Assembly: GCA_964473825.1 (NCBI GenBank)
Contig: CAYYQL010000002.1
Coordinates: 64,001-128,000, forward strand
Length of the DNA: 64,000 bases
From: an uncultured archaeon
Lineage (GTDB): Archaea > Asgardarchaeota > Thorarchaeia > Thorarchaeales > Thorarchaeaceae
Direction of reading: 5' to 3'
Shown here: one piece after another, positions 2,030 to 26,834 of the stretch
Layout: each line of letters begins with the position of its first letter
Numbering within the stretch: the first letter of the stretch is position 1
The notes under the pieces: generated by a model
What the model saw: only the letters and a program-made list of their open reading frames with translations
Databases searched by the model: none
What the model was told of the DNA's origin: nothing
Made by a program: the position numbers and the translations under genes

Positions 2030-2281
2030 ATGGTATTTGCAGGTGGTGCAGCTGGAGCTGCGGCGGCGGTACATTCTAGCTCCTATCGTGTGAAGTATAG
2101 GAAAGAGGAATTTCTTCGACTCGTACATCGTGCTGAGCCCGAGAGAGTATACCAGACAGGGCGAATGCATTTCTTTGCGTTCGACGGCTTTGTGATGTAT
2201 ACGTTCGAGTGTGAGGACGAAGACTTTCGACAGGAGATATTCCACGCTATCGAGTTCTCAAACATCCAGTGGTCGGAATAG
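2030..2281 (+). CDS. small hypothetical protein
   Basis: 83-aa ORF preceded by GGTGA SD-like sequence; protein-like composition. Confidence 0.65.
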   Translation: MVFAGGAAGAAAAVHSSSYRVKYRKEEFLRLVHRAEPERVYQTGRMHFFAFDGFVMYTFECEDEDFRQEIFHAIEFSNIQWSE

Positions 2282-2345
2282 AACAGCAGTCCTCTGTCCG
2301 GGTATTATATGTGGACAGGTTCCAGTTGGAACAAGCGTGAATCTC

Positions 2346-3348: not shown

Positions 3349-3425
3349 GGGCCGATGGCTCAGCCCGGTAGAGCGACAGGCTCTTAACTTGTTGGTCGCG
3401 GGTTCGAATCCCGCTCGGCCCGCCA
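3349..3425 (+). tRNA. tRNA-Lys (anticodon CTT), CCA encoded
   Basis: Cloverleaf: GGGCCGA/TCGGCCC acceptor, GCTC/GAGC D stem, ACAGG-CTCTTAA-CTTGT anticodon arm, GCGGG-TTCGAAT-CCCGC T arm, G73, CCA. Confidence 0.97.
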
Positions 3426-3550
3426 CCTGTTCTTCAGGAGGTACTCCTCACTTCCAATTGTTCTCCGTAATTGATGGAACCCAATACCTGCTAAGCCACC
3501 AGTCGTTGATTGTCTTATGGACTAGCTGGTCCTCCCAGCAACGACACTGG
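3426..3550 (-). ncRNA. candidate omega/reRNA-like guide RNA overlapping the 3' end of the TnpB-like gene
   Basis: Three predicted hairpins (3499-3508/3539-3550 spanning the stop codon; 3452-3459/3469-3479; 3436-3440/3444-3448), located where TnpB omega-RNAs are encoded; boundaries inferred. Confidence 0.4.
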
Positions 3551-5678
3551 GTTTTCTCATATCAACTTCAATGATGTTCCGCGCCGCGTTGACATCAGCA
3601 TGGAAGTATGCAGCGCAGTTCTCACAGTAGAAGTATTCCCCGCCCTTGTACTCCTCTGTCGACCCTTCGCACTTCACCCTCACCCCTGTCTCCCCGCAGA
3701 TGTGACATTTTCGAGATGTCCATGCTGGACTCACCGTCCAGACGGCGCCGTAGCAATGCCCAAGAGCCTGACGCATATACCGCACGGTCTCAAGCACCTG
3801 TGACCACAGGTTGAACGACAACCGCCAGGATAGGTCCCCGTAGCCCTTGGGCGGCTGGTAATTCTTCAGATTCTCGAAGTACAGGGTCTTGACTCCGTGC
3901 CTCTCGCAGAACCAGACGGCCCTTGAGGCAATCTGCCGAGCTATCTCACGATCGAGTCGTCGAACCTTCTTCCAGATGGCATCCAGATGTCGCTCCTTCT
4001 TCCTGAGGGGGCCGGGTCGAGGATAGTCTTTATCGTGCTTGCGCTCCCAGTTGTTGCGCATGAGAGCAACCCGTGAGGAGAGCGCCTTTGTCTGATGCCT
4101 GAGGAGGTTGCGTTTCCTCACCAGCTCGTCAAGAGAGACAAGCTCATCCACGTAACCCTGACCGTTCCGCACCGAGAGCACGATGGGCACACGGATGCCA
4201 CGATCTGCACCGGCCTTCCGCGTATACTCGCGTTCCCCAATGACTTCATCGACCATCTCCTGAGTGGGTGGGAGGAAGGGTATGTCCAGGATGACCCGGT
4301 GACCACGCAAGAGCAGAGCGGGTGGACCACAGGTACGGGACTCCCTGAGTCGCTGCACCTTCTCCTTCAGTTGTGCCAGCTTCTCGGGGTCGGCGTTCTT
4401 GCGGTTCTTCCATCTGTTCAGCTGATAGACGGCATGCTGAAGCTCGATGGTGTTGGTCAGCTGCTCGTGCTGGTCCTCGTATTTTCGTGCTCGAAAGCGA
4501 AGTTTCTTTGCTCTCAGGTGCTTGCCCTGAGCCTCCGCCTCCGCTGCCCTTACTCTGTCCTCTCTTGCGGCCCGGGGTAGCCAATCAAGGAAACGAAACG
4601 CAAGAGTCCGCGTCTTGTATGGAGAGGTCTCATGTGTTTCTCCCTCCATGTGCTCAGGGAGCTTCAGGAAAAAGAGGATCTCATCTTCCCTGTTGAGGTC
4701 CCGAGAGTACCAGTATCCTTGACTGGGAGTGTTCTCCGTGCTGGCAGAGAAGTCCTCCGTATGGGAGTACATCCTGGGAGTGGCGAAGGGGTAGCCCTTC
4801 TTGTGCCAGTGACGGAGCCGCCACTTGGCAGTTGTAAGGATGCCTTTTGCTGTCTGTTCTTCCTTGAGATACCTGCGAATCCGTCCCCGCTGGTAGGGAC
4901 GAGTCCCAAGCGGTTCTCCTCTCTTCTCGAGAATCGAGTGGTCCAGTCTCCGGCGGAGCTGCTTGAGGACCGAGAGGCTGTAGTAGAAGCCTGTCCCGTT
5001 GTTCTTGGTGGACTCACACGCTGCTCGGACTGCCTTGGTCAGGTCGCTTGCGATGTACCGGTTCTTCAGCAGCCGGATCAGGTCGGTCTCGTTCTCACAG
5101 AGATACTCGATAGCTGTCTTCATCAGCTGTCGTCGCAGCCAGTTGGACTGGATGATGCGCGCAGCATGCTCCAGCGCGTTTCGATACAGGCGTTCGAAGC
5201 ACTGCTTTTGGATCTCAGGGTGACTCCTGTATCTCACAGAGTCCTCGTTCTTGAGAAGAGCGTAGCCCTGTCTGGGATACGAGGCCAGCTCCTCGCCGAG
5301 AAACGCAAACCGTCCCTTGTCAGCATACACTCGTTCAAGAACCTCGTTCACCAGTGAGACAAACGTCTCGAAATAGGAGCCAAGAAGAGAGAGGTCGATG
5401 TTGTTGACCTTCCGCCCGGTGGCTGCGGAGAGGCGCTCCTGAATCGCAGCAAGTTCACCCCTTCGGAATCGTGGATCTGGCCCCCTTCCCTTCCCCCTCT
5501 TGTTCACCTCGCGATGAACGGAGCAGAGGGAGAACTTGGAGGTCAGGTACTTCAGACCCGTACCGTGGTGCGTTGTTGATGTGACCGATATAAAGTTGTC
5601 ATCCATTGTCTGTTGCTTCTCCGAGGGATCCCTCGTAGCATGCTCCCGGGGATGACGCCGGGCTTCTTTCGTCATCAA
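3522..5678 (-). CDS. tnpB: large TnpB/Cas12-like RNA-guided RuvC endonuclease (718 aa)
   Basis: RuvC-I KAGADRG (D492), RuvC-II LYFENL (E602), SPAWTSRKCHICG...YCENC zinc ribbon, RuvC-III HADVNAARNI (D695); long helical N-terminal region. Confidence 0.9.
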   Translation of the reverse strand: MMTKEARRHPREHATRDPSEKQQTMDDNFISVTSTTHHGTGLKYLTSKFSLCSVHREVNKRGKGRGPDPRFRRGELAAIQERLSAATGRKVNNIDLSLLGSYFETFVSLVNEVLERVYADKGRFAFLGEELASYPRQGYALLKNEDSVRYRSHPEIQKQCFERLYRNALEHAARIIQSNWLRRQLMKTAIEYLCENETDLIRLLKNRYIASDLTKAVRAACESTKNNGTGFYYSLSVLKQLRRRLDHSILEKRGEPLGTRPYQRGRIRRYLKEEQTAKGILTTAKWRLRHWHKKGYPFATPRMYSHTEDFSASTENTPSQGYWYSRDLNREDEILFFLKLPEHMEGETHETSPYKTRTLAFRFLDWLPRAAREDRVRAAEAEAQGKHLRAKKLRFRARKYEDQHEQLTNTIELQHAVYQLNRWKNRKNADPEKLAQLKEKVQRLRESRTCGPPALLLRGHRVILDIPFLPPTQEMVDEVIGEREYTRKAGADRGIRVPIVLSVRNGQGYVDELVSLDELVRKRNLLRHQTKALSSRVALMRNNWERKHDKDYPRPGPLRKKERHLDAIWKKVRRLDREIARQIASRAVWFCERHGVKTLYFENLKNYQPPKGYGDLSWRLSFNLWSQVLETVRYMRQALGHCYGAVWTVSPAWTSRKCHICGETGVRVKCEGSTEEYKGGEYFYCENCAAYFHADVNAARNIIEVDMRKPSVVAGRTS

Positions 5679-5873
5679 CAGTACACCTCTCTCTTGTGTG
5701 GCTCAGAAGTTATAATCTCATAATCCGTTATAAAGTTACCAAGCAAGATTGCTTCTTGTCGGCTTAAAAGGATTATTAGGCTTTTTTACTTAAAATAAAG
5801 GCTTATGAGAGAATTTTGCTTCTTACAAATAGTCTAGAATATCTATATAAATAACCATGACCAATGGATAGAA
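5679..5873. promoter_or_regulatory. AT-rich divergent promoter region shared by the TnpB-like gene and the 1555-aa gene
   Basis: TATA-like boxes TTATAA (~5710, ~5728) and CTATATAAAT (~5844); TTGCTTCTT occurs twice. Confidence 0.55.
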
Positions 5874-8800
5874 GTGTCGCGTCTAGGGAGTTCAGGGAAA
5901 CCAAGCCAGATTCTGGCCCAATCAGTCATGACTGGGCTTGCTGCCTTAGTCAGACTGGCGCAGGCTCGAGGTAACTCCCAGACCCAGAAGTATGTCAACT
6001 CCATGACTGAGGTCTGGACTAGTGCGAAGAAGGAGCTGAAAGAAAATCAGGTCTTGAGCCCCCATGACTTCTCTTCTGTCCAGAATATCGAACATCTCTT
6101 GCGTCAGAGGTGGCTGGACATAATCTGGCACAGCACGAAACGGTACGGCAATCGTGAGTTCAAACGGATATACAGCTGGCGAGAGGGAAGTGTGGGTCCA
6201 CTGAATGGTCTACTGAACTATGCGGGAGCTCGTCTCCGAGATCTCGCTACAACTCACTACTCCTTTCCCGACCCGCAGCACTATCTCATCTTGCAGTACT
6301 CTGACGGTATCAAGACAGTCGTGCCTCAATCAGCCATATCAGAGGATGTCCCTAAAGATGTCGCGAAGAAGTATTGGCGAGTCGGCTATTCTGGTGACTC
6401 CAAGAGTCCACGTTTCTTGCTCTCACACCCTACACTTCCAGAACTCGATTTCGTAGACATGATCCGCGGACACGTACAAGAGCTCTGCCGACAACTCTTC
6501 ATCTACAACGTTCCGCGAAACGAGGCCCACCGATACATCCGCCTTCTTGTTCACAGACTCAAGCCCTTCCTGGACTGGTTCTATTCTCAAGGCGAAATAG
6601 GGCGAAAGGACTTCTATCCCGATGGAGACAGAGAACTGAGGGATATTGTACTCGAGGTACGGGCCGTGTATGGGCGTCGGGCTGGTAGACGAGAGCGTCT
6701 TTCCGACCAACTTGAGTGGAAAGACACGGCCCCTCTCACAGTAGAGTTCCTCAAGGCTCATGCAGAATCACTCTGCAATGGCTCGACATCGGAAGAGATC
6801 AGGGATGCTTGTGATAAAATCCTCGGCTACATCAATTCGGAGTATATTACCGAGCCTGACTTGCAGAAGCTCGAGGACCAGATTTCTGCCATCAGCCAAC
6901 GCGAGGGAAATGACTGGCACCGGGTGCTTCTCTCAGTCTTCCATCATCCGCGATCTCTGAAGTCGGTACTGTTCGCCGGGGACTCGATGTTGGAACGCCC
7001 TACAGACAGACAGTTCTTCGCTGAGGTGCCCATCCGTTCAAACACGGGCCATGGCAAGGCAGACTTGGTGCTCTTTGTTCGACGAAGTGTTGGACAGCGC
7101 ATGGTCTGGACTCCCGTAATGATTCTCGAACTCAAGACGAAGACCGCCTTCGACTACAACCTATACTGGATGCGACCACGGACGAAGAAGAACTACTCTG
7201 TTCCGGTGTTACATGGCTGGAAGACACGACTGACGCCCAAGGATTGGTCGACCATATCGACCTCCCTGCCCATCAAACGGACACGTGAACAGCTGGCGCT
7301 CTATGAGAAGATACTCCTTCGTGAGTACAGACAATTAGTACCTCAGGATGCATTTGCTCCCCGTGAGCTATGGAAGGGTGTCGTCATTGTTGACACGGCA
7401 GAGAGCTACGGGTCGATATTGGATGCTCTTGAGGGGATGCTTTCCAGCCTCCAGGCAGACCCAGCAGGCTTCGTTTCTACAATGGGGTGGACCTCTCACA
7501 GGTTCAAGAAGTCGGGAGGAGGTGACCGAATAGCCCTCCTCAAATCTCCCTGTTCGGGGCCCGTAGGCGTACTGCGAGAAGCTGTCATGGCAGATAAGAT
7601 CAAGTTAGACGATCCCTTTGAGCATCGGATCGCTGACGAACGCACTCTCACGCAGTATATCTCTGTTTCCTCAGCCACCTCTGGAGGAAATGCCGCTGCA
7701 TGGCATGCAAAGAACTGGCACCTCTTACATCACATTGACGAAGTCGTGGAACAGTGTCCCTCTACTGCCTCCGTCTGGTGGCTTGACTTGTTGGGAAGTC
7801 TTCCTGAACATCTGCGTAAACGGCGTTTCGGCCTGGACGACAAGTCATCGGATTTGCTCGAGAATATCACGTTCCTAAATCTGAGCAATGAGGTCGAGTC
7901 GTTTCTCAAAAGGAAATCAAACATCGTGCAGAGCCTTACCACCATCCCTGGGCCGGATAAGACAGAACACGTAATCATCATAGATGGCTGGGCGGACCTG
8001 AACCGGATGACTCCAACCTTGCAGAAGGAACGGCTCTTAGCTCTCGAATACGCTATCCTTGATACACTACCTGACAGGAATGTCAACATCATCTGGGTGG
8101 ATAGTGGCGTGAAAGGCACAAGGATGAACGAAACCTACCAACGGCCGTGTCTTGATGTTCTGCCCTATGACTCTCCTAGGCGTTTCCAGTTGGATGAGGT
8201 CATCTGGAATATACCCACTGCTCCCAGAGTATTCGGGTGGCAGACTCCCTATGCCGATGAGAAACGGATAATCGTTCAAGATACACCGACGAGTGCTCCT
8301 CCTTGGACCACTATGATTGAGGTGCCCATCCTTAGGAAGTGGGCGCGGAAGTTTAGGGGCGGCCCAAAACGCGACAAGATAGTGGCCGAGGAAGTCATCA
8401 TGGAAGAGCTAGTCACTACGCAGTCGATGTACGGACGAAACATAGTACTCGGGGACATCCAAGGTACAATCTCCTACCTCACAGAACAGACAGTCCAAGA
8501 TCTCCAGGCCGAGGCGATGACTGTCTCGCCGGCTCTTCTTCGCCCGAGGGACGAAGAAAGCATTGCCTTGGTGGCTGAACCGGAGAGCAAAAAGCACTCT
8601 TTCTCTAGTCGGTTAGTAGAGAAGGCTGAGGGGACATCGCTAAGAGAACGACTTCATCTCTGTCCGATTCATCCGCCTCCTAGTCCAAAACGAGCAACTG
8701 AAGCAAAGATGTATGCAAATCCTCTGGGTATCCCACGTCACTGGTATCACAAGACAGAGAGAGAAACTGAGGCTGAGAAACACTACACAAGGAAACCTCC

Positions 8801-10541
8801 CCTCTACGGGAAGAGTGAACTGATCTTTCTTGATAGTCCCACTGCGCGCAGGAGGGAGATCAGACGGTTACGAGATGCGGCGTGGTTTCTGAAACGCCTG
8901 TTCCCTGTGCATGACGACATGCATGGCCTGTGTGGACAGGTGTATTCACTCTGTGAAGACGCCCTAGATAATCCTGATGAGCCTGATAGATATGTTGGCG
9001 TACTTCTCCAAGTCAGAGACCTCATCATCCGTCATCCCAGCCGAGCTCGGGCTTGGCAATTGATTGAGCCGTATCGCGAGTTGGTAGGGGAGGTTCTCGG
9101 TGCGGAGAATCGTCTGCTCCTTGCCGATATCCGCCGTGAGAATCCAGATATCCTTTCCCTATATGGGAACAATCTCCTCATGGGAATCATGGCTGCATTG
9201 GCTAAGACGGTTCGTGATGAGGGGCACTCGGCTGCGATTTCCCTCTGGGAATCTGTGGTTGAATGGCTACCGTATCAGATGGGATTCGCCCCGGTTCAGG
9301 CATCTCAGGAGAGAATCCAGTCAGTGTACGACTTTCAGACGATCTTCGCAAATCTCCTCTCGCGTGCGGGATACCTTACAATGAAAGACCCCCAAGTGGA
9401 AGACCATATGGACGAGATAGCCTTGCTGCCCGCCATCTATAGGCCAGGGCTTCTAGTGGGCAAAGAAGACCATCTTTGGTTCCTCTTCGAACGCCCAGAC
9501 GGTCAAGCTGTCTGTGGTCTTATGAGAGAAAGACAGGAGAGGTTACGTTTGGGATTCCAGTGGTGTTCGAGCAATCCAGCAGAACTCAGTGATAGTGCAC
9601 AAGAGCTGCTTGACGCATCTTGCCTTTGGATCGAAGAGTCACTAGCCGTGACCAATGTAGGCGGTCAAGAGATTCTATGGGGATGGAGTCATGATGAAGA
9701 TGAATGGGGGCTCGTTGGCAGACTTGACTACGGAAGCCACCAAGATTCAGAGGGGGTCCCCTCTCTCTTGTGGGTTCGGCTCTCCCCTCTTTCTATGAAA
9801 ACGACACTTAATCTAGAAGAGTGCCCCATTGGAGCACCCATACACAGTCTTGAGAGATTTCATCCAGTGCTGGAGAGGCTTGCGGGGCAACAGCATAGAG
9901 TGATATCTGTCACATGTGAGGTGACCGTGGACTTGAGCCAAGAAACCTATGTTGTCAGGTGCAAATCATCACGGGAGCTGTATCACGAGTTCCTAACTCC
10001 GCGAACCAAGGAGGTTGTGGCTTTTCTTCGGTCAACTGCCCTCAATGGGCGCAGTGTCACTAACGAAGAGGGCGCAATCCTGACATGGGACCACCTCACT
10101 GATATTGAATATGGGTATGCTGGAAGCGGAGAGGAATGGTTCAGCCTCTCATTTCTGAAACCGCTGGTGCACCGCAGTCGTTTCTTCGAGAGCTATGCCT
10201 ATCCGGAGAATGCGGAACATCTTCTCTCTGCACAAATGGGTCCCCCCGTGACCATGCACATCTGTTATGATAAGGGAATCATGGTTATGCATCGGTTCCT
10301 ACATCCTGTACTTACTGTCAGGTTAGATGGTCTGCCCGAGAATTCACATCTGAAGAAACTTGAGGGGGAAAGAATGAACATCTATGACGTGGCCTTGCTT
10401 GCAGAATTGGAGCAGTTGATAGATATTTCAACAGGATCAATCCATCCTCTAGAGTTTGATGTGACTGCAATCACTAGCGTAGGATTGCCCGTGAAACTTG
10501 AAACCAGTCGCCTTGCCAACCTTCTTCTGTATAGAAGGTGA
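5874..10541 (+). CDS. giant multidomain protein with a RecB/Cas4-like PD-(D/E)XK nuclease domain and a degenerate P-loop-like domain
   Basis: Uninterrupted 1555-aa ORF; AEVP(E384)...GKADLV(D397)...ILELKT(E419/K421)...EQLALY(Q473-Y477); later SSATSGGNA and HVIIIDGW resemble degenerate Walker A/B. Confidence 0.7.
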   Translation: MSRLGSSGKPSQILAQSVMTGLAALVRLAQARGNSQTQKYVNSMTEVWTSAKKELKENQVLSPHDFSSVQNIEHLLRQRWLDIIWHSTKRYGNREFKRIYSWREGSVGPLNGLLNYAGARLRDLATTHYSFPDPQHYLILQYSDGIKTVVPQSAISEDVPKDVAKKYWRVGYSGDSKSPRFLLSHPTLPELDFVDMIRGHVQELCRQLFIYNVPRNEAHRYIRLLVHRLKPFLDWFYSQGEIGRKDFYPDGDRELRDIVLEVRAVYGRRAGRRERLSDQLEWKDTAPLTVEFLKAHAESLCNGSTSEEIRDACDKILGYINSEYITEPDLQKLEDQISAISQREGNDWHRVLLSVFHHPRSLKSVLFAGDSMLERPTDRQFFAEVPIRSNTGHGKADLVLFVRRSVGQRMVWTPVMILELKTKTAFDYNLYWMRPRTKKNYSVPVLHGWKTRLTPKDWSTISTSLPIKRTREQLALYEKILLREYRQLVPQDAFAPRELWKGVVIVDTAESYGSILDALEGMLSSLQADPAGFVSTMGWTSHRFKKSGGGDRIALLKSPCSGPVGVLREAVMADKIKLDDPFEHRIADERTLTQYISVSSATSGGNAAAWHAKNWHLLHHIDEVVEQCPSTASVWWLDLLGSLPEHLRKRRFGLDDKSSDLLENITFLNLSNEVESFLKRKSNIVQSLTTIPGPDKTEHVIIIDGWADLNRMTPTLQKERLLALEYAILDTLPDRNVNIIWVDSGVKGTRMNETYQRPCLDVLPYDSPRRFQLDEVIWNIPTAPRVFGWQTPYADEKRIIVQDTPTSAPPWTTMIEVPILRKWARKFRGGPKRDKIVAEEVIMEELVTTQSMYGRNIVLGDIQGTISYLTEQTVQDLQAEAMTVSPALLRPRDEESIALVAEPESKKHSFSSRLVEKAEGTSLRERLHLCPIHPPPSPKRATEAKMYANPLGIPRHWYHKTERETEAEKHYTRKPPLYGKSELIFLDSPTARRREIRRLRDAAWFLKRLFPVHDDMHGLCGQVYSLCEDALDNPDEPDRYVGVLLQVRDLIIRHPSRARAWQLIEPYRELVGEVLGAENRLLLADIRRENPDILSLYGNNLLMGIMAALAKTVRDEGHSAAISLWESVVEWLPYQMGFAPVQASQERIQSVYDFQTIFANLLSRAGYLTMKDPQVEDHMDEIALLPAIYRPGLLVGKEDHLWFLFERPDGQAVCGLMRERQERLRLGFQWCSSNPAELSDSAQELLDASCLWIEESLAVTNVGGQEILWGWSHDEDEWGLVGRLDYGSHQDSEGVPSLLWVRLSPLSMKTTLNLEECPIGAPIHSLERFHPVLERLAGQQHRVISVTCEVTVDLSQETYVVRCKSSRELYHEFLTPRTKEVVAFLRSTALNGRSVTNEEGAILTWDHLTDIEYGYAGSGEEWFSLSFLKPLVHRSRFFESYAYPENAEHLLSAQMGPPVTMHICYDKGIMVMHRFLHPVLTVRLDGLPENSHLKKLEGERMNIYDVALLAELEQLIDISTGSIHPLEFDVTAITSVGLPVKLETSRLANLLLYRR

Positions 10542-10851
10542 GATTCCTGTTGCTGGAATATTGGAGTCGGACTTACCCGTCCGTTTCGCCTATCTCATCA
10601 ATGAACGAGTAATGTGGATTGTTTGCCCAGAAGCGTACCTCTCAACTTCATGTGGCCAATGATGGTTCTCGATATATGCTTGCCAACATCGAAAGAAAGG
10701 TTATCAGGAGTGATCTCTTTGCGTGATTGAGATAGCATGTATGGCATGTGCGCTAGGTGGATTGATAGCCGTCATAAGATTGGCGATGTAGTTATTTCGA
10801 TTAGCTCGCGGAATGCCAGACAACTTGCAGACACGTGGCATCTGAAACCCA

Positions 10852-12729
10852 ATGGCTAGCCTAGGATATGATTGGTATGCGGTGGAACCCTCATCAGTTT
10901 GTCTTCTTGTGTGGTTCAAGGGAGGAATGGTTATGAAAGGAACAGAAGAAGTGTTTCGCCAGCGCCAGTACTTCGAGTTTGTTGCTCATATGAAATGGGG
11001 CTGGGAATTCCAGCATCTCTTCGAGCGGTTGATGATGAGAACTGAACCCGGCTTTATCCCAGTTAGACCACAGGGACGCTTAGGCGATTGGAAATGCGAT
11101 GGATACTCACATCGGACAAGTCGTTTCTTTCAAGTATATGCCCCAAGATTCACCAAGTCAAAGGTAGCCGTACAAAAAGCAGAAGAAGACCTTGTTTATG
11201 TACTCGAAAACTGGCCTGAAGATACAGCTCCATTACGCGAGTGGATTTTTGTATACGGCCATCATGATGTATATCCTGCTCTACGTACAGAGATTCTCAA
11301 GATTGCCCAGAATCGTGGTATCAAAATCATCGAGTGGAACCTACAAGATATTTGGAACAAGTTTCTGGAACTGAGTCGAGATAGTCGTCTAGCGGTACTA
11401 CAGATGCCCGGAGAATGGCTCACCGATGATAGTAGAAAGCTCGACCAGATACTTTCTAGATTGCCAGAAGCCCAAGGAAAAGAAAGCCAAGAAAAGAAGT
11501 CTTGGACATCTGTCCCCATACAAAGCACGCCGTCATACAGGGTGACCATAGATGAAACAAAGGGAGTTGATGGCACATTATGGTTTTTGTTCGAAATGGG
11601 GATCGAGGTGAAAGAATTCCTGGTTGAATCTTTGGACAAAATTCATCGGGAATTCAATGAATTATGCTCTTGGGGGAGAAATAAGAGCTTCCAGTGGCTT
11701 CACCGATCCAATGAAACCCTCTTGAAGGGGCATTACTGGCGTGATGATATTGGGTTTCTAACCACAACTCACATCAGAAAGCTGTCCAGTGCATCCTTTG
11801 AGCTGAGTTGTTCTCTTTCTAGAGCATTGGATGGTCACTGGCTATCGCAGTCACTTGTCGGGCTTCTTGGTAAGACCCCTGTTTTCCCTCTTGAGGAGAA
11901 TACGATAGTAGATGGCGGGAGAATTCTCATCAAAGATCCAAAGAAACCCCATCTAACGATTTTGGTGAATCTGAAAGACCTCTATGCTGGGATGATTGCC
12001 AATCCGAAGTACGAAATCAATTTTCAATCAACAGATGCATCTATAACTGAGTATTGTACATCCTCAGGTCAGAGGGTATTATCCTTCCATATTCGTTCTA
12101 ATCTAGGCAGTTTTGAAAGAATCGCTCAGATAATAGGGCCTAATGTAATTCAGCCAAGTGAAACGACTTCTTCAGATGTTAGAGCTTTCGACGTAGGTTG
12201 GAACGGAGACGGTCTTGAGATTCGGATATGGATTAACGCAGCGGAACCTGATGGATGTATTCAAGACTGCACATGTTGTCCCCTATTCTTGAAGGGCTGT
12301 AACAACGCCCATTATTGGCAATCGGTAAATCTTAAACACCTCACAGAGGAGCTCGAGTATGCATCTGTGTTTCTGCCGGCTGATTCTGAGGCGGAGCTAT
12401 TAGAGTTGGTTCGAGAAGAGATGAGTGACACCTTGCGAGTCATCTTAGGCAAGAAGGAAAGGGAAAAAGTTTCATCGCTGTTCAGACAGATAGCAGATGC
12501 TCGCGCGAAATTGAATGAACAGTTCTCGAAATTGCTAGATTACTGCCGACGAATACACCTGATGACCCCAAGAGAGCGCCGAAATGTATCTGATCTTGCA
12601 CGGGTTGTAAGGCATCGAATAGAGCGAGGCGGCAAGTTAGCAGATCCTCGCGTTATTGGTGCGAACCCAAAGTACATGGATTTGGAAACGTTTGATTGTC
12701 TAATGGAGGACTACGGCGTCGTTTTCTAG
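10852..12729 (+). CDS. protein with an N-terminal restriction-endonuclease-like domain of the ABC-3C/Lamassu effector type; frame stays open past the TAG to 13005
   Basis: EFQHLFERLM...FIPVRPQGRLGDWKCDGY...FFQVYAP motif; likely start ~10928-10934; 91 further sense codons follow the TAG. Confidence 0.65.
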   Translation: MASLGYDWYAVEPSSVCLLVWFKGGMVMKGTEEVFRQRQYFEFVAHMKWGWEFQHLFERLMMRTEPGFIPVRPQGRLGDWKCDGYSHRTSRFFQVYAPRFTKSKVAVQKAEEDLVYVLENWPEDTAPLREWIFVYGHHDVYPALRTEILKIAQNRGIKIIEWNLQDIWNKFLELSRDSRLAVLQMPGEWLTDDSRKLDQILSRLPEAQGKESQEKKSWTSVPIQSTPSYRVTIDETKGVDGTLWFLFEMGIEVKEFLVESLDKIHREFNELCSWGRNKSFQWLHRSNETLLKGHYWRDDIGFLTTTHIRKLSSASFELSCSLSRALDGHWLSQSLVGLLGKTPVFPLEENTIVDGGRILIKDPKKPHLTILVNLKDLYAGMIANPKYEINFQSTDASITEYCTSSGQRVLSFHIRSNLGSFERIAQIIGPNVIQPSETTSSDVRAFDVGWNGDGLEIRIWINAAEPDGCIQDCTCCPLFLKGCNNAHYWQSVNLKHLTEELEYASVFLPADSEAELLELVREEMSDTLRVILGKKEREKVSSLFRQIADARAKLNEQFSKLLDYCRRIHLMTPRERRNVSDLARVVRHRIERGGKLADPRVIGANPKYMDLETFDCLMEDYGVVF

Positions 12730-13024
12730 GCGATTTGCTCAGACACTGATGGAGTTCTGCAACTGTTTCGAGGAAGACCATTCAAGGAAAATCGGGAATA
12801 TCTGAACTCCCTCCTTCCCTCCATTGCGGAAATAAAGGACCAGTATCTTGGACATTCCACAGAGCTATCGTACATTACAAGTTGTACGCCAGAGATAGTA
12901 GATTACGACTCGCTGGGCGTTGATTTTCTACTGGCAAATTCGTTGGGCCTCATGAAGAGTGGAGGCAAGATAGACAATTCCTCTTGGACTTTCGACAGAG
13001 ATTAAAGTGGTTGGGTTCAGATAA

Positions 13025-14638
13025 ATGTCGGAATGCCAGAAGAAATTCTTCTTTCAGATCATGTGGGGAGTAGTAATGACGAAATCCCAGTTCATTGTAG
13101 AATATACACATCCACGGTTTGCAGCAATCATGCCAGCGGAACAAATCTTGACAGTTGGAGATTTGGATGGCGATTTATGGCACTTCTCTGATGGCGATAT
13201 AACAACGGCAACTTTCTCCGATTTAGTACCTCCAGGTTCGGAACAAGGCTACGTTGGCTCGCTGTCTATCAGCCTTGTAGGTCTTGAGGTTCCAGAGATT
13301 GTGTATGAGTCTACTCGGCGCATAGATGTAACCGATATTGGCAGCTATCTGTTGCCTCTTCCTACAGCGAAACTGAGAGCAGAAGTCACTCTTGTGGATT
13401 TGGACAAGAGAGTCCTCGAAACCCTTAGATGGTATAGAACTGTCGCATCTGAGAACGGGATTGGCGCGCCACAGGCATCTATTGATGAGATGATTGAGAA
13501 ACTAAAAGAATGCTTCATAGAAGACCCATCTCGATTGCCTGAGATGCTGTCAGAGTATCAGCAAAGCGAAAGGCGTTTCAGGTTCCTTGCGAGGAAAGCA
13601 CGGGAAGACCCAACATCACAAGCAGTCGATGCTTTGCTGATTGAAAGACCTCTAGATCCCCTCGGTATGGGTAGCCAGATTGTTAGGGAATTGCCCGGGA
13701 TTATAGAAGCTTTGGATCCTCAGTCTCAACAAGAAGCGATAGATATGCTGGATGATTTGAAGAGAAGAATCCTGTCAACATCAATTCAGAAGCCTGACAA
13801 TTCAGAAGAATACGATGTTGCATTGCGACTGAGAGAAAGCCTCCGGATTCAAAAAGCGCTGCGAAAGTTTGAAGACGAAAGTACGAGACTGCCTAACAAC
13901 GTTGACCCGGATGCAACAAAGCAGTTTGCATTTGATTTCTTTCATCTACTAATGCATTACTGGAATAACGCAATCAGATATCTCAAGTACGAGAAGTCAC
14001 AGCATTGGATGAGGGAGTATCCAGAGTATGCAGCCGGTCTTTTCTATGTCAGAAATCGTGTTTCACTGGACGGCGAACACATTCTCCCGCATGTAACAGC
14101 TCACGTTAGGCAGGAGGTCCTTCGTCATAATCTGATCCAGAGAAGAGAATGGAAGGAAATCGTCCAAGCAACAAGTGACGCAGCACGCCTTGAGAGATAC
14201 ATGCTAGACTGGACGGTTGAGGGTATCCTCTCCCAGGCCCTCTCACATCTCACAAAAGGAGAGCTTCTTCCGCCGATTGTATTGGGGGGAGTTGCTCTAG
14301 AGGAGGCGATGACCAGAGCGCTGTTTCACGTGAATCCCGACGATTATGACAAGAGGGGATTGGGTCTGAAGATAAAGGACGTCCATAGAATGATAGGACG
14401 CGAAGCTCTTGGGTATGAGAAGAGTCAGTGGAAGAAGGACTGGAATCTCCTAAACAAGGGCTCAAAGGAGGAGGGGACGGGATTGGTTCAGATCAGGACC
14501 AGACTGCAACACCCCCAGATTGGATTAGAGAAGAACATCCCTTCAAGGAAAGATGTTGCTGAAATGATTCTGGCTTGCCAACGAATGTGCAATGCTTTAC
14601 TCAAATACGATCGTCACAGGTGTAGCGAACTTGCCTAG
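13025..14638 (+). CDS. protein with a C-terminal HEPN-like RNase domain
   Basis: GGVALEEAM helix followed by an R-x4-H motif (RTRLQH, 14495-14512) and a terminal helix. Confidence 0.6.
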   Translation: MSECQKKFFFQIMWGVVMTKSQFIVEYTHPRFAAIMPAEQILTVGDLDGDLWHFSDGDITTATFSDLVPPGSEQGYVGSLSISLVGLEVPEIVYESTRRIDVTDIGSYLLPLPTAKLRAEVTLVDLDKRVLETLRWYRTVASENGIGAPQASIDEMIEKLKECFIEDPSRLPEMLSEYQQSERRFRFLARKAREDPTSQAVDALLIERPLDPLGMGSQIVRELPGIIEALDPQSQQEAIDMLDDLKRRILSTSIQKPDNSEEYDVALRLRESLRIQKALRKFEDESTRLPNNVDPDATKQFAFDFFHLLMHYWNNAIRYLKYEKSQHWMREYPEYAAGLFYVRNRVSLDGEHILPHVTAHVRQEVLRHNLIQRREWKEIVQATSDAARLERYMLDWTVEGILSQALSHLTKGELLPPIVLGGVALEEAMTRALFHVNPDDYDKRGLGLKIKDVHRMIGREALGYEKSQWKKDWNLLNKGSKEEGTGLVQIRTRLQHPQIGLEKNIPSRKDVAEMILACQRMCNALLKYDRHRCSELA

Positions 14639-14857
14639 GAGACCCCTTTGGTCCTTCGGTGTCTTCTAACATAGATGAGATGTGAATCAGGAAACGAGTT
14701 TGTTCCTGTTGAAATATTCTACATGCTGATCGCAGGCGATAGATAGAAATCAGTGTAACTATTCATATTCGTTTGAGTAGGAAGGGGATGTCAGAACAAA
14801 CGAAACAGAATCTCAAGCGACTGCTAAGAACCATAGAGAATCGAATCGTTTAGAGAT

Positions 14858-16075
14858 GTGCAAGTTTCACTTGCGGTTTTTACCCCAAGAGAAGAGGATC
14901 CGCAATTTGTCTATTCAATAGTACGATTCCTCAATCACGATGAACCTCATAGGAACGAGCTATACGACTGGGATAGATTCAAAGTAATTCACACTGTCAT
15001 CAGCACCGACGATGCAAAGAACCTGATTGAGCGATTATTCAATGAAAACGTCTTTGTCTTGAGAGATCGGGATTCCACGGAAGAACGAATGCTAATTCCC
15101 ATGGAATGCAATCTTCATGATATTCGTGATGTTGGAAGTCAAGAAAGCTATGGCTATGCGAAACACGATTGGCCGTCACTCTTTGCAATAGCTGATGCTC
15201 GAAACGAACCCTCTGGAGAGATATGGCATTCCTATCTATGTGCCATTGGACAGCCTCTGTTTCCGAGTGTGCAAGAGGGAGTCAGAACACTCTTTGGTTT
15301 CAGTGTTGACGAGAAATGGGGAATCAGAAGTAGGTTGGAAGTAGTCGTACCGGACTTCCGGGCGAGAATCAGGAACTTCGTGATTGAGGGCATAAGAGTA
15401 CGAATCGAAGTAGATGTAGAAAGACTGACGCTTGAAGATGTCCGGCTCAAATTATACAGCAAAGGCCGTAAGAAGCGATTCAATTCTGACGACATCAGAC
15501 TAACCGGCAACATTCACACTTGTACACTTGATGAGGAACCCGTGATGCTTGAGGCGTGTATACTATCTGTAGTTGACGGCAGTCTTGTTGATAGAGTGAG
15601 TTATGATAGGCGATACCCTTCAGGGATCACACCCCTCAGAATGTATGACACTCGTATGGCTCTAGGTCTAATCTCTGAAGGTGAGAATAGACATGTAGAG
15701 TTCAAAGAGAAACTGAATACCCAAAACCCCTATGAGTTTCTTGAGAGTGTTGTGGCATTTGCCAACACCAAAGGGGGGCAAATTCTTTTGGGCGTTAACG
15801 ATAGAGGTGAAGTGAGAGGCATAAGAAAGGACTACTCGGAAACCATAATCAATCTGATTCATTCCCATATGAATCCCCCCATCGAACCGAACATTCAGCA
15901 CGGAATAGTCATAGAGGGGCGGGAGATAACAATCGTTGAAATCCCGGAGGGCGGTGCAAAGCCCTATTGGCTCAAGAATCATGGATCTTATGTCAGAAGA
16001 GGGGCTACTGACAAACCCATTTCGAGAACCGAAGCAGAGCAATTATTCAAGAATCGAGCTGGAATAGACTTCTAG
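14858..16075 (+). CDS. Schlafen/AlbA_2-domain protein (C-terminal), probably 5'-frameshifted from an original start at 14788
   Basis: GENRHVEFKE...VVAFANTKGGQILLGVND...YVRRGATD AlbA_2 motifs. Confidence 0.85.
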   Translation: MQVSLAVFTPREEDPQFVYSIVRFLNHDEPHRNELYDWDRFKVIHTVISTDDAKNLIERLFNENVFVLRDRDSTEERMLIPMECNLHDIRDVGSQESYGYAKHDWPSLFAIADARNEPSGEIWHSYLCAIGQPLFPSVQEGVRTLFGFSVDEKWGIRSRLEVVVPDFRARIRNFVIEGIRVRIEVDVERLTLEDVRLKLYSKGRKKRFNSDDIRLTGNIHTCTLDEEPVMLEACILSVVDGSLVDRVSYDRRYPSGITPLRMYDTRMALGLISEGENRHVEFKEKLNTQNPYEFLESVVAFANTKGGQILLGVNDRGEVRGIRKDYSETIINLIHSHMNPPIEPNIQHGIVIEGREITIVEIPEGGAKPYWLKNHGSYVRRGATDKPISRTEAEQLFKNRAGIDF

Positions 16076-16167
16076 TTCCATCTATGACTTTGGATATGAT
16101 GCCGAATATTCCTATACGCGCTCTGCACCAAAATCTGACTATTGATTTCTTTTGCGTCCCTTTTCTT

Positions 16168-16968
16168 CTAAGGGTGCCAATATCTTGCGCTACACCTTTT
16201 TCTGTAACGGAACGCCCACTTTTGAAGGCCTGAGGGCAATGGTTCAAGTGAGAAGTAGGAATGGTAATAGCTATTGCATATGGTGAAATCGAGAAACTGA
16301 TCGCATGAGGGGCAGCTGATTTCAAGACCGTCACATCGTTGGGACATGTGAGCAGAACTTGCCCGAATGTTGAGAATGGGAATATCGGATTCAATGTAAA
16401 TCTCAGTTCCACAGAAAGGACATTTGCCCACGACTTCAATCCAGCCATAGGGTTCCCAATCTAAAATAGGTCCAGAGGTGTCAGTTTCCGCATCTATCCA
16501 AGGGTTGATTTGTTCATAGACTGCTTCTGCTGTACGAAAGATGGCTTGAAGATCATCATCGCTTTGGAGTCTACTAACGAACCGATCAAGATCACAAATC
16601 ATACCTTCATCCCGATAAATCAGGTCCATCATCGCACTCTTGGCGCATCCTGATTGTTCAGTGGTTACATAGCTCTTTACGAGTTCGAAGTGATCGTAGA
16701 CATCCAAACCCATTTGGTTCCCTCTTCCCTTCAAGTAGCCAAGTTTAGCCATCGCACTTGCCTTATTCTCGAACATGCTCAAACCAAGTATGACTCTATC
16801 GATCTGGCTCCTATCAGATTCATATCCATGAAACTCAAGGAACTGCTGGTAGGCAACAACGCCGTGCTCAAAGGGCCATTGAGCATTCCAGCCTACGTCC
16901 GGAAATGGGAGGGCGACTACTGAGAAATCATTGGAATAGGCATCTGGGAGAATTTGTGCTAGTGCCAT
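16168..16968 (-). CDS. hypothetical protein with a C-terminal zinc ribbon
   Basis: 266-aa ORF with CPFCG...CPSCD. Confidence 0.6.
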   Translation of the reverse strand: MALAQILPDAYSNDFSVVALPFPDVGWNAQWPFEHGVVAYQQFLEFHGYESDRSQIDRVILGLSMFENKASAMAKLGYLKGRGNQMGLDVYDHFELVKSYVTTEQSGCAKSAMMDLIYRDEGMICDLDRFVSRLQSDDDLQAIFRTAEAVYEQINPWIDAETDTSGPILDWEPYGWIEVVGKCPFCGTEIYIESDIPILNIRASSAHMSQRCDGLEISCPSCDQFLDFTICNSYYHSYFSLEPLPSGLQKWAFRYRKRCSARYWHP

Positions 16969-17089
16969 ATGGGGTAGAGTGAATGTGTCTTCTCCGGGAG
17001 AATCGCCCTTGGAAACTTACCTCCCCCCCTTGTGTTCAACTCGTACAACAGCGCATTGATTAGCCGAGTTTGCGTTGAACCGTGAAACG

Positions 17090-18096
17090 GAGTGGCAACT
17101 ACTTCCCCCACAAAATCTCGATGAAACATCGGTCGTAGTAATCCTCAATTGTGTCGGCCATATCAAAGGTGACCATGTTTTTCAAGCTCAATTTCTTCTC
17201 TTCCGCCTCTCGAAGGGCGACCTTGAGAAAAGTTAGGCTGTTTCCACATTGCTCTTCAATTCCTGAAGCCAGTCAAGGCACTCGTCACCGCTTGACCAAG
17301 GCATATCATGGCTTTGCCTTTGACAATACTTTGTGACTATTCCCTTTGCTGTCTCCTCAAATGCGGTTTCCTCTAGAAGAAAAAACACAATCTCATCTGT
17401 ACATCTCTCTCTGGATGGTCTTCTTCGCCAATCCTCTTCGTCTGCTCTAACACTTGCATTTGTACAACGAGCTATGAAGGGCACATGGATGCCATCTCCA
17501 AACCAATTCTTCTTCTCTGTCAGTAGATGCAGAAACAACTTCGTATCAAAATGCACGTTGTCGATAATTGCCAGTGCTTTTGCCCTTCCGAAAAAAGGCT
17601 CGGAAAGCGATTCGAATACTTGGTGGAGCCTCTGTGCAGGATTAGAATAACCTCCAGAAGCTGCAGCCCAGTAGAATACGAAGCTCCAATCATTCTTTTC
17701 GGTCAGAATACGATAACCAAGATGCTGTGCCAGCGTAGTCTTCCCCAGTCCAAGAAGAAACCTTCTCGGCCCGAGGTGGCTTTCCATTCCTCATTCGTTT
17801 CAAGCCCTATATGTTTCTCCCGAAACTGCGTAAGTAGGGCAGTTTCCTGTTTGAAAAGCATTACTGTCACATGAGAGATTGGCCATAGAGACCTCGATTA
17901 ACCCCTCACCGGCCCACTCGTTCGCCTCTTCTCGCTTTCTGGTTATAGAGATTTCGGAATACTCTCTTTCAAAATCTACAGCATAATCGCGAGAGTTTGT
18001 GTGGACGCCCATGATTAAGAGAACTCTTCGATGACTACAAGATAACACAAGTGAAGGGATTTCAAGGTATTCGGAAAAGACTTTATTGAAACGCAT
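17090..18096 (-). pseudogene. fragmented STAND-like P-loop NTPase
   Basis: GLGKTTLAQHLGY (Walker A remnant), LAIIDNVH (Walker B) and CGNSLTFLKVAL lie in different frames separated by stops/frameshifts. Confidence 0.6.
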
Positions 18097-18111
18097 CCCT
18101 TAGTAGATGCA

Positions 18112-19359
18112 GTGGCAGAGGGGATGAAACTTATGGATGTCGAGAAGCTTCTAAGAAAAGGTGAGTCTCAAGAGGTTGAATTCAGAATTAAGTACGACAA
18201 GTCGCGAGAGGGGCGAAGGAACTTGGCCGACATAGTTGCTGCCTTTGCAAATACTGATGGTGGGACCATCATCTTCGGGGTTGAGGACAGTGGTGAGGTC
18301 GTTGGTTTGCCGCTATCCGACATTGATCTTTCACAAATCAAGAACCATATCGAATCATTTCTTGATCCCGTTCCTGAAATCCGATTCAGATTTGAAACGT
18401 TTGAGAAAAAACGGCTTGGAATTATCGAAGTCGACAAATCGAAACAGACTATTACATCTCGAGGTGGCAAACCACCGATACGAAGAGGGACAGCCACGGT
18501 ATACAAGGACGTAGAATACATCTACAAATCACAGAGGGAGGCGCAAAGACGTGCTATGTTCATCATGGTTGCCATCACATCAGTACTGATGGCTCTTGCT
18601 CTAGGTTTGATAGAAACGATTCTTGTCGGAGTATCAATCCGTTTCTTAATGACTATTATGATGTTCACCGTGGGCTTTCTACTACCCCTTGGCTACTCTT
18701 TGATTAAGGCTGAAACGAAATACTCAGCTGAAGCCTCAAGAACTAGAATCCATGCCTTTCTAGGGAAATCAGCACCGCTCGTTGCCATGTTTATTGTGAT
18801 TCTTGAGTTTGCTATTGCATATGTGTGGCTGTCATTTGGCATGAGCCAGCTTGGGTTTCTAACACTATCAAATCTAGCGATGTATCTTATTCTGGGCGCG
18901 ATTGACTTGGTTCCATCGAACAGACTGGCCCAGTGGTCTGGCCTGTTTTTAATTGCCATTCTAGCAGGATTCAGCCTAGCGACAATGCAAGATGCAGAAA
19001 CTCTTCCTAGCATCGTTGTTGAGCTGAGCGGTGTCTTTGTTGGCCTTCTTGGTGCGTTCTCACTGGGCGAAACTTGGAAGGAGATTGAGAACAGAAGAAG
19101 GGGTCGAGATTTAGAGCTACTACTAATCGAGGAGTTAGACTCGATTCAAAACTCCATTCTCCAGAATACGAACCAATCGTTACAATATCCCATATGGGAT
19201 GCAATAACCTCAGGAGGTGACCTGCTATCTATTCGCGGGGTTATGGTGACGAAACTGAGTAGAGCGTATCAAGCCATATCAACATACATCTCTCAGCCGA
19301 CGAGAGAGAACAAGAACACAGTCTTGAACCTGATCTCCGATTTGACCAGATCCAATTAG
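18112..19359 (+). CDS. Schlafen/AlbA_2 domain fused to a multi-pass membrane domain
   Basis: GESQEVEFR...VAAFANTDGGTIIFGVED...IRRGTAT followed by about 6 hydrophobic helices. Confidence 0.85.
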   Translation: MAEGMKLMDVEKLLRKGESQEVEFRIKYDKSREGRRNLADIVAAFANTDGGTIIFGVEDSGEVVGLPLSDIDLSQIKNHIESFLDPVPEIRFRFETFEKKRLGIIEVDKSKQTITSRGGKPPIRRGTATVYKDVEYIYKSQREAQRRAMFIMVAITSVLMALALGLIETILVGVSIRFLMTIMMFTVGFLLPLGYSLIKAETKYSAEASRTRIHAFLGKSAPLVAMFIVILEFAIAYVWLSFGMSQLGFLTLSNLAMYLILGAIDLVPSNRLAQWSGLFLIAILAGFSLATMQDAETLPSIVVELSGVFVGLLGAFSLGETWKEIENRRRGRDLELLLIEELDSIQNSILQNTNQSLQYPIWDAITSGGDLLSIRGVMVTKLSRAYQAISTYISQPTRENKNTVLNLISDLTRSN

Positions 19360-19527
19360 TCCACTAACGAAATAGTCAGAAACCTCATTCTCTTACCCAT
19401 TCAACTAATACTTCCTAGGCCATCCTTATCTTCTCCTTTACCGTTTATGTCTTGAAGTCTACTGAGGAGTTGAATCTCATCACTGGTGTTGCTTATATGA
19501 CTCCCTTCCATATCATAAGCGGTCAGA

Positions 19528-19965
19528 ATGGTCGACGAAGATTCACAGGGCGAATCAACGAATATGCGTAACAATATCGCGGTTGCTATGGCAATTCTAT
19601 CTGGTCTAGGATCAATCGGTTCTCTTATCTTGAATCTCTTGGATGCCTCGGGCTCCGTGGGTGCCGCGGCTCTTTGGTTCCAAGCATTCGCAGTACTTAC
19701 AATCCTCCTTGCAGTTGCGTTCATGAGTATGGAATGGGACCTGAGGAGAAACAAATGGCCGGGAATAGAAGAAAGGTACATGCAGTCAGACCTGCTTACC
19801 ACCGTTCCTCATCCCGAATCCACTCCTCAAGCCCTTCACCGAATGCGTATCGAAACGCTTAGAAAAAGAAAGAGGTTGGCTTTGGCAGAAGGGAAACAAC
19901 AACTTGCTGATCAGTATCAATCTGAAATAGATGAGGCAAAGAAGCATCTCAATCACGATGAATAG
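19528..19965 (+). CDS. small 2-TM membrane protein with a basic C-terminal helix
   Basis: 145-aa ORF with two hydrophobic segments. Confidence 0.6.
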   Translation: MVDEDSQGESTNMRNNIAVAMAILSGLGSIGSLILNLLDASGSVGAAALWFQAFAVLTILLAVAFMSMEWDLRRNKWPGIEERYMQSDLLTTVPHPESTPQALHRMRIETLRKRKRLALAEGKQQLADQYQSEIDEAKKHLNHDE

Positions 19966-20007
19966 CAATAGGCCTAGCGATAGGCTATTGACTTGTAGAA
20001 GTTTGCT

Positions 20008-21624: not shown

Positions 21625-21935
21625 TTACATCCGTCCCATAGGCTCAAACAGGCATCATTCTGTTTTATGGAGATTGCGGTGCCTACTCTGCATTGTGTCG
21701 GTCGGATAGGGCCATTCACCATAGCAAGTCACGTGATATTTTGGAGTCGAATGTCTGCCGATAGACTTGGAGCCGCTAACGATACCTTGTCTTCTTAGAT
21801 GATGGAAAATCACCTTCAGAATTTGTCCAGACTGCATCATCCTTGACAGAAGGGGCACACCAACAATGATGATTGCCGCCCGACTCAGAACGGCTGGTAA
21901 GGCGAGAGCTGTGCAGTGAGTGAGAACGAGGATGT

Positions 21936-22919: not shown

Positions 22920-23108
22920 TCACTCTTTTCTTATGGACTTCTGACCAGATTATCACAGATAAACTACATCATCAGTTCGTAAATCAATGGGATTCATGCC
23001 TCCTGCTCCTCAAGAGAGGGCGCCCTCATTAACTAGTATCGAATCGGTTGTGTCGTAAGTCATATAACGAAGGCGGGGCATGCGACATGTCGTACACAGA
23101 CTCTACTG

Positions 23109-24446: not shown

Positions 24447-24477
24447 AGAGGGCATTAGTCCCTCTTGAGGAGTCTTC

Positions 24478-26825: not shown

Positions 26826-26834
26826 GTTGTGAGT

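Follow-up and report, generated by a model that had tools for sequence, protein, structure and literature searches.

The window examined here is a stretch of 64,000 nucleotides from an uncultured archaeon of the family Thorarchaeaceae (contig CAYYQL010000002.1, positions 64,001 to 128,000). Towards its left end it carries two large genes transcribed away from each other, one coding for a protein of 1555 amino acids (aa) and the other for a TnpB-like protein. We find that the 1555-aa product is 'aCas1', a giant Cas1 homologue of Thorarchaeota lying head-to-head with its TnpB-type neighbour, and that the two genes together are a member of the published Asgard aCas1-TnpB family, within its long-type group. 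The open reading frame (ORF) of aCas1 starts with GTG and stays open for 1555 codons without an internal stop, and relatives support the start, as homologues align from residue 1; the ORF that an earlier note on this DNA had drawn at 5874-10541 is thus real and intact. Searching at E<=1e-3 gathered 164 homologous sequences, whose labels, where given, are nearly all Thorarchaeota. The protein consists, in order, of a Cas1-like catalytic domain, a RecB-type PD-(D/E)xK nuclease, a RecA fold with a decayed P-loop, a disordered linker, and about 570 aa without a recognised fold. The gene pair and the domains are as follows, with the basis for each in parentheses.

3522..5678 (-): TnpB/Cas12f-like gene of the long type, 718 aa, with RuvC residues D492/E602/D695 and a CxxC...CxxC zinc finger (Pfam, PADLOC, alignment)
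5679..5873 (no strand): A+T-rich spacer of 195 bp between the divergent genes, presumed to hold their promoters (sequence reading)
5874..10541 (+): aCas1 gene, giant protein of 1555 aa (ORF reading, 164 homologues)
5874..6632 (+): Cas1-like alpha-helical catalytic domain, aa 1-253, without the N-terminal beta domain of canonical Cas1 (predicted fold and invariant residues)
6996..7403 (+): RecB-type PD-(D/E)xK nuclease domain, aa 375-510 (conservation, strand/helix order, weak HSDR_N_2 match, Atlas neighbours)
7632..8336 (+): RecA/Rad51/KaiC-fold domain, aa 587-821, with a degenerate P-loop, S-G-G-N, and a Walker-B-like D704 that is kept (structure matches, alignment)
8337..8801 (+): Pro/basic linker, predicted disordered, aa 822-976 (low model confidence across most of residues 1-137 of the second model, see below)
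8802..9398 (+): helical domain, aa 977-1175, weakly Cas1-like by fold only (predicted fold)
9438..10538 (+): beta-rich C-terminal region without a recognised fold, aa 1189-1555 (predicted structure)

Domain anatomy of the giant protein

Family searches with the whole protein return little: Pfam gives no family at E<=0.1, PADLOC and NCBIfam give no usable family, and profiles of the whole protein, of its Cas1-like domain and of its nuclease domain find chance-level rows only when compared with the sequences of the PDB. The anatomy was therefore read from conservation and from predicted structures. Conservation was scored in two sets, one of 45 full-length homologues and the other of 38 locus-derived sequences, the latter including a clade of ~24% identity and one Heimdall record. 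The structural evidence for the N-terminal part comes from an AlphaFold model of aa 1-830, built on a 45-row alignment, with a mean predicted local distance difference test (pLDDT) score of 86.7 and a predicted template modelling (pTM) score of 0.85.

Residues 1-253, which the earlier note had passed over as unrecognised, are the best-conserved part of aCas1 (46% mean column identity, 18 invariant columns), and in the predicted structure they take up the alpha-helical fold of the Cas1 catalytic domain. Eleven of the 50 listed structural matches of the aa 1-830 model fall on model residues 1-256 and all of these are Cas1 proteins, the other 39 being RecA-type. The structure-match tool cautions that helical domains can attain such Z scores by chance, but a chance match is unlikely here because all 11 rows are of one family. 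The invariant positions of the domain include E73, G92, N93, R98, N111, G118, R122, H185, D192, D195 and R198. When its profile is aligned by hhalign with a profile built from 22 canonical Cas1 sequences of the same phylum (Asgard), E73, N111 and D192 fall opposite the canonical invariant residues E152, N187 and D230, and D195 opposite the near-invariant E233, at a probability of 1.3%; that alignment (E 0.04, 94 columns, with the histidine unaligned) is not significant. The Pfam family Cas_Cas1 matches two of the 38 members, the better with an E value of 4e-4.

The second domain carries the motif series of the RecB family, E...D...(E/D)xK...QxxxY. The earlier note had listed it as E384, D397, E419-x-K421 and Q473-x3-Y477, all of which are in the sequence, and these candidate catalytic residues are conserved: D397, K421, Q473 and Y477 are invariant in both sets, E384 is kept in at least 90% of either, and E419 is kept in at least 90% of the 45 full-length homologues and is E or D in the 38 locus-derived sequences. 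The model predicts a helix at 362-372, strands at 379-388, 393-406, 409-423, 425-433 and 443-451, helices at 455-463 and 468-488, and a strand at 500-507, with D397 on the second strand, E419 and K421 on the third, and Q473 and Y477 in the long helix. The core order of a PD-(D/E)xK enzyme is alpha-beta-beta-beta-alpha-beta, which the predicted order fits. To that extent the model is compatible with the proposed fold at aa ~375-490; no solved nuclease stands among the listed structural matches of the aa 1-830 model, because the lists are filled by Cas1-like and RecA-like domains. The Pfam family HSDR_N_2 is found weakly in three of the 38 members (best E 0.02), and the nearest named Atlas clusters of the domain are all PDDEXK/Cas4 families, with scores of 0.86-0.89 that serve as a lead only. 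The further description of the domain as Cas4-type proves too specific. In 24 canonical Asgard Cas4 proteins the four iron-sulphur (Fe-S) cysteines of Cas4 (PF01930), C10, C149, C152 and C158, never vary, but the 38-sequence nuclease alignment has no conserved cysteine, and hhalign finds nothing between the domain and the canonical Cas4 profile (probability 0.5%). Judged by its motifs, the domain looks like a catalytically complete nuclease of the RecB-type PD-(D/E)xK class.

The core fold of RecA is present in the predicted structure of aa 587-821 but the Walker A motif GK[ST] is not, as the earlier note had seen: the P-loop lysine is lost here and in 31 of the 38 relatives and kept in seven. 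Its description of the remainder as a Pro/basic linker and a Trp-rich C-terminal half also stands. In the second model, pLDDT lies below 50 at residues 1-39, 59-95 and 107-137, corresponding to residues ~831-967 of the protein, and five tryptophans of the C-terminal half (W1061, W1131, W1278, W1300 and W1405) are invariant in the 45 homologues. An Atlas search with the C-terminal 370 aa returned no usable hit, and the best Foldseek match of the C-terminal half has an E value of 0.012. An internal duplication that would relate the Cas1-like N-terminus to the C-terminal half finds no support at the sequence level: hhalign of the N-terminal domain against the C-terminal half gave nothing.

The TnpB-like partner and the published family

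The partner protein scores 41.3 bits with the Pfam family Cas12f1-like_TNB, against a cut-off of 26.3, and PADLOC calls its gene Cas12u3/Cas12f; its score of 56.6 with the NCBIfam model guided_TnpB is below the cut-off of 100. The RuvC residues D492, E602 and D695 and the four cysteines of the zinc finger are invariant in 16 long-type homologues, and the protein has an N-terminal extension of ~480 aa without a Pfam family. A divergent TnpB-like ORF is found in every one of the 47 related loci in which the N-terminus of aCas1 is present and the upstream DNA extends for 2.5 kb or more, and in 20 of the 27 loci with less than 2.5 kb of upstream flank; the TNB domain is present in 11 of the 12 upstream ORFs that were put through Pfam. 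This copy of the pair looks functional.

The TnpB proteins fall into two size classes, a long one of ~715-725 aa and a short one of ~545-625 aa. In trees of 39 pairs, computed with FastTree only, the two classes are separated on the TnpB tree by one clean split (support 100), and on the aCas1 tree the label needs six changes, of which at least five are forced by supported branches. Because the type is clean on the one tree and scattered on the other, it appears that aCas1 has repeatedly exchanged its TnpB partner.

Downstream of the TnpB-like gene the features are:

3501..3560 (-): conserved block comprising the last TnpB-like codons and ~22 nt past the stop, a candidate 3' end of a guide-RNA scaffold (16-locus alignment)
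3481..3500 (-): variable segment directly after the scaffold, in a guide-like position (alignment)

Across the 16 long-type loci, conservation reaches ~22 nt beyond the stop codon, where it breaks off abruptly after a common ACAAT-N-A-N-CG, and one hairpin in the block has a compensatory pair (UA in nine, CG in seven). Rfam assigns the block to no family, finding only two tRNAs. The arrangement fits a candidate guide-RNA scaffold followed by a variable segment. The segment itself has no second match in the genome within two mismatches, save one at chance level.

The aCas1 proteins reportedly stem from Makarova et al. 2020 (CRISPR J), which may hold their domain anatomy; beyond the study considered next, a literature search returned no further relevant aCas1 paper and none giving that anatomy. 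The protein that the earlier note had called uncharacterised is, with its partner, already in print. In the available excerpts of Altae-Tran et al. 2023 (PMC10691335), TnpB proteins associated with aCas1 form two Asgard groups, Cas1H-Asgard-1 and Cas1H-Asgard-2, aCas1 is 'likely to be the transposase', and the pair is taken as a probable Cas1-based transposon. The same excerpts report GTTCACTCA as a motif conserved downstream of tnpB, and a hypervariable region bounded by conserved sequence resembling the start of a CRISPR (clustered regularly interspaced short palindromic repeats) repeat; they leave the nuclease, RecA-like and C-terminal domains unmentioned.

The window has what marks this family, namely a Cas1-homologous domain, an adjacent TnpB gene and an Asgard host, and it shares with the published pairs (as excerpted) the same very divergent Cas1 homologue beside TnpB, the Thorarchaeota as hosts, the two TnpB groups and a conserved region downstream of tnpB. 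It differs from them as a long-type copy whose scaffold ends in another way and without the GTTCACTCA motif, and nothing in these differences sets it outside the family. Of 33 short-type loci, 16 have the motif, ~100 nt beyond the stop, and it is a feature of that group, the long-type group having its own conserved scaffold end; its absence here does not exclude membership, because the excerpts of PMC10691335 describe two groups.

The tRNA-Lys locus and the distribution of the family

Beyond the TnpB-like gene lies a tRNA gene, and beyond aCas1 a region of variable content (related loci are numbered with the prefix L, and contigs of the genome to which the window belongs with the prefix C):

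3349..3422 (+): tRNA-Lys(CTT), the sole copy found in the genome, 100 nt past the TnpB-like stop (69.5 bits; 1 genome match; anticodon from the orthologues in L006 and L074)
10852..21641 (no strand): variable island downstream of aCas1, with a low GC content of 0.45-0.46 (absent from L006 and from a second allele of the source population)

Among 49 loci scanned, nine (some of them orthologous) have a tRNA gene within 150 nt past the TnpB stop, specifying Lys, His, Gly, Asp or Leu: the window, L006, L074, L080, L038, L042, L052, L047 and L076. By a rough estimate this is far above what a density of about one tRNA gene in 70 kb would give. Five tRNA-Lys loci, namely that of the window, L006, L071, L074 and L080, have the same ~10 nt, GTGGCTYAGC, immediately after the scaffold. 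We note that this sequence resembles the 5' part, in the D-arm region, of the neighbouring tRNA on the opposite strand. Just beyond the tRNA, at 2211-2906 (+), is a gene for a DUF7347/ArsR-type helix-turn-helix protein with a weak PADLOC match to Csa3 (E 4.5e-6) and an orthologue in L006.

L006 is the closest relative of this locus, with aCas1 83% and TnpB 90% identical. The block of tRNA, TnpB and aCas1 is collinear in the two (3349-10471 of the window corresponding to 7476-14598 of L006) but the flanks are reversed, with 2-2801 of the window matching 20651-17699 of L006 and 21935-29292 matching 7366-1, so that the block stands in the opposite orientation to the sequence around it. L071, L074 and L080 likewise disagree as to which side carries the housekeeping flank. 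These three loci share the tRNA-Lys neighbourhood, with flank genes 78-85% identical and aCas1 only ~24% identical. Over all the loci at this site, modules with 24% and 83% aCas1 identity sit between flank genes that are 78-96% identical, which suggests repeated use of one tRNA-Lys site or replacement of the module in place.

The region from 10.5 to 21.9 kb of the window has no counterpart in L006. The island that it contains codes for two Schlafen/AlbA_2 proteins (14858-16075 and 18112-19359) and at least six ORFs of 133-625 aa without a Pfam or PADLOC family, and could represent cargo or else a variable or defence island. Two alleles are present in contigs of three runs from the probable source community. 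The full allele is present as one contig of 16,590 nt, with depths of 51 and 65 in two runs; in the other, positions 5437-21934 are replaced by 201 bases, with depths of 30 and 28, and this is the only form in the third run. The flank depth of ~78-84 is the sum of both alleles. The 16.5 kb missing from the shorter allele take away ~80 codons from the start of the TnpB-like gene, and with them the spacer, aCas1 and the island.

Searched for the Cas1-like domain, 151 genomes of the phylum yield 19 with a match: the genome of the window, 17 of 26 in its own family, one of four in one other family, and none in 25 other families. The aCas1-TnpB pair is thus confined almost entirely to one Thorarchaeota family, with between one and 18 copies of aCas1 per genome. 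The genome of the window has at least four aCas1 loci, on contigs 2, 26, 6 and 39, the other copies being 29-38% identical to this one. On contig 6, two short-type TnpB genes in tandem (85153-86823 and 87059-88663) adjoin the aCas1 copy.

A repeat search of the same genome also recovered three gene-less copies of ~520-560 bp, which consist of the 3' end of a short-type tnpB with its scaffold and are 89.5-93.5% identical:

C12:26427-26684, C19:5128-5358 and C102:1732-1961: mini copies, loci L086-L088 (repeat search of own genome)

One mini copy has a possible target duplication, TCTAG, which is unmatched in a second copy. A canonical cas1 gene (C19:2908-3747, Pfam E 3.9e-75) is located ~1.2 kb from the mini copy at C19:4936-5358. 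A second repeat family, of ~115-180 bp, occurs in five places: two on C2 and one each on C6, C82 and C18.

Mobile element, host module or guide writer

We consider it most likely, with a probability of roughly 0.6, that the aCas1-TnpB pair is a Cas1-based mobile element, in agreement with the published reading of it as a transposon. Several features recall a selfish or mobile element: the patchy presence and varying copy number, the exchange of TnpB partners, the different modules found at one tRNA-Lys site, the inverted block, the gene-less mini copies and the frequent nearness of a tRNA gene. aCas1 would then most likely be the enzyme that both cuts and joins the DNA of the element. Like casposases and Cas1, its Cas1-like domain would act by transesterification, linking target DNA to the ends of the element, and the fused nuclease would cut or trim the other strand or the ends, in the manner of TnsA in Tn7 or of Cas4 on prespacers. 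DNA binding or assembly may fall to the dead RecA-like domain together with the C-terminal half, and TnpB with its RNA could cut the emptied or unoccupied site and so keep or spread the element, as in IS200/IS605.

Such an element has partial likenesses to several known systems. Casposons, with casposases such as 6opm, have a family B DNA polymerase (PolB), terminal inverted repeats and a casposase that keeps the N-terminal beta domain, whereas here there is no PolB among the neighbours and ORFs scanned, no terminal inverted repeat was found, the N-terminal domain is lacking, and the Cas1-like domain is fused to a nuclease and a RecA-like domain and partnered by TnpB. In Cas4-Cas1 fusions and Cas4/Cas1/Cas2 complexes (for example 7mi4 and 8d3p) the domain order is the reverse of that in aCas1, where Cas1 comes first, and in the window the nuclease lacks the Fe-S cysteines and any profile similarity to Cas4, with neither a Cas2 nor a CRISPR array found. 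Tn7-type transposons combine the restriction-like nuclease TnsA, the integrase TnsB and the ATPase TnsC, with an RNA-guided protein added in CRISPR-associated transposons (CAST). A nuclease, a strand-transfer enzyme, an ATPase-fold adaptor and an RNA-guided protein occur together here also, by analogy only and with no homology claimed; the joining enzyme has a Cas1 fold and is not of the DDE type, the ATPase is RecA-type and decayed, and TnpB has kept its catalytic residues, unlike Cas12k. The likeness to IS200/IS605 TnpA-TnpB is that the scaffold overlaps the 3' end of TnpB and is directly followed by a variable segment, at which conservation stops; the differences are that a 1555-aa Cas1-like partner takes the place of the ~130-aa Y1 transposase, that the genes are divergent, and that TnpB has its long N-terminal extension.

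A number of observations weigh against reading the pair as a Cas1-based element. The Cas1-like domain of the window's protein matches no Pfam family at E<=5 and lies below the gathering threshold of PF01867, and its profile, run against 1.84 billion representatives, retrieves 138 hits that are all family members or fragments of them, with zero canonical Cas1 proteins. Since the Pfam, hhalign (probability 1.3%) and profile searches are weak or empty, what connects the domain with Cas1 is its fold and its motifs rather than sequence statistics. It lacks the N-terminal beta domain of canonical Cas1, the structural match beginning at about chain residue 114 and at model residue 3, and no Cas2 was found among the neighbours scanned. 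The published motif is missing at this copy, with zero matches to GTTCACTCA within one mismatch near the long-type TnpB. We could establish neither transposition of this copy nor an end sequence, a terminal inverted repeat or a target duplication for it. None of the 703 pairs among 38 full-length aCas1 proteins reaches 90% identity and the median is 26%, so that the full-length copies are old, or identical ones were collapsed in assembly of the metagenome-assembled genomes (MAGs). A close strain, moreover, keeps most of the TnpB-like gene without aCas1 at this place, and the two genes are therefore not always gained or lost together.

One candidate for the ends also tells on this side. The pair in L006 is bracketed by a 36-nt inverted repeat (86% complementary; 7421-7456 and 14785-14820), but one arm is the region upstream of a tRNA and a similar site is found upstream of the AlbA_2 gene of the window (17912-17997). 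As the sequence also stands before an unrelated gene, we reject the repeat as an element end and regard it as a probable promoter motif that these sites have in common, on which the inversion of the block may have acted. The other searches for ends gave no more. A repeat search around the pair found no convincing terminal repeats, a 37-locus alignment of the 360 nt surrounding the stop codon of aCas1 revealed no common end motif, and Tandem Repeats Finder detected no tandem repeats or repeat array in the window. A 16-nt direct repeat at 3506-3521 and 12692-12707 was discarded, being at chance level by our estimate.

An alternative explanation, which we regard as unlikely, is that the pair is a guide-writing or defence module, in which aCas1 would capture DNA fragments and install the variable segment beside the TnpB scaffold, giving an array-less adaptive immunity of one spacer or a programmable defence. 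A Cas1, a Cas4-like nuclease and a Cas12-like effector are the genes with which type V systems carry out adaptation and interference, and the conserved scaffold is followed by a variable segment; the hypervariable region with a border like the start of a CRISPR repeat, noted in the excerpts of PMC10691335, and the adjoining island with its two Schlafen/AlbA_2 proteins point the same way. What counts against it is that the window has no repeat array, that no Cas2 was found and that PADLOC has no family for aCas1. The segment, moreover, has no target elsewhere in the genome, and GTGGCTYAGC is common to the five tRNA-Lys loci despite an aCas1 identity of only ~24% between clades, which argues for a position-fixed guide derived from the flank and against rapid guide turnover.

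It is likewise improbable that the pair is now a domesticated, immobile host module, an old paralogous family serving recombination, repair or RNA-guided regulation whose transposon origin is historical. The great age of the copies suggested by their low identities is in keeping with this, as are intact ORFs, catalytic residues that are invariant over the whole depth of the family, and a tRNA-Lys-side position kept in several genomes. A resident host function is harder to reconcile with the patchy presence of the family, nine of the 26 own-family genomes, nearly complete ones, having no match, or with a copy number that varies from one to 18 per genome and the dispersed gene-less mini copies in the window's own genome. 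The closely related allele without aCas1 indicates, besides, that this copy is dispensable.

Also improbable is a further reading, in which aCas1 is a self-sufficient cut-and-paste enzyme on a single chain. It would unite an integrase of the Cas1 kind with a nuclease that cuts the ends and a dead RecA adaptor, perhaps also with an inactive second Cas1-like domain replacing the second protomer of the dimer, and would work together with TnpB and its RNA, either by being steered to sites such as tRNA flanks or by writing the TnpB guide. The proposal of the earlier note, a stand-alone active RecB/Cas4-type nuclease with an inactivated NTPase as scaffold or sensor (a defence effector, for example), accommodates the conserved motifs and the decayed P-loop but is very improbable, as it ignores both the most conserved part of the protein, the 253-aa N-terminus with its Cas1 fold, and the TnpB partner fixed in 47 of 47 loci, and the hallmarks of Cas4 are absent.

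The family to which the pair belongs is already catalogued and known from sequence, and the window leaves its classification unchanged. What the window adds is an intact long-type copy whose domains are mapped and whose candidate catalytic residues are named, along with a defined scaffold end, a natural aCas1-less allele and a placement beside a tRNA. Asgard archaea are the archaeal lineage closest to eukaryotes. To our knowledge, casposons are the only setting in which Cas1 serves as a transposase, its other known role being to integrate spacers in CRISPR systems; aCas1-TnpB would be a third use of Cas1, joining it with the ancestor of Cas12 in one unit. Because it unites these two, the pair is relevant to the question of how a TnpB and an adaptation module came together as type V CRISPR systems, and also to whether Cas1 needs Cas2 and its dimerisation domain in order to act. 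If aCas1 did write the guide of TnpB, the pair would be a surviving intermediate form that links TnpB transposons with type V CRISPR; if aCas1 were instead steered to its sites, it would be a Cas1-based counterpart of the RNA-guided transposons.

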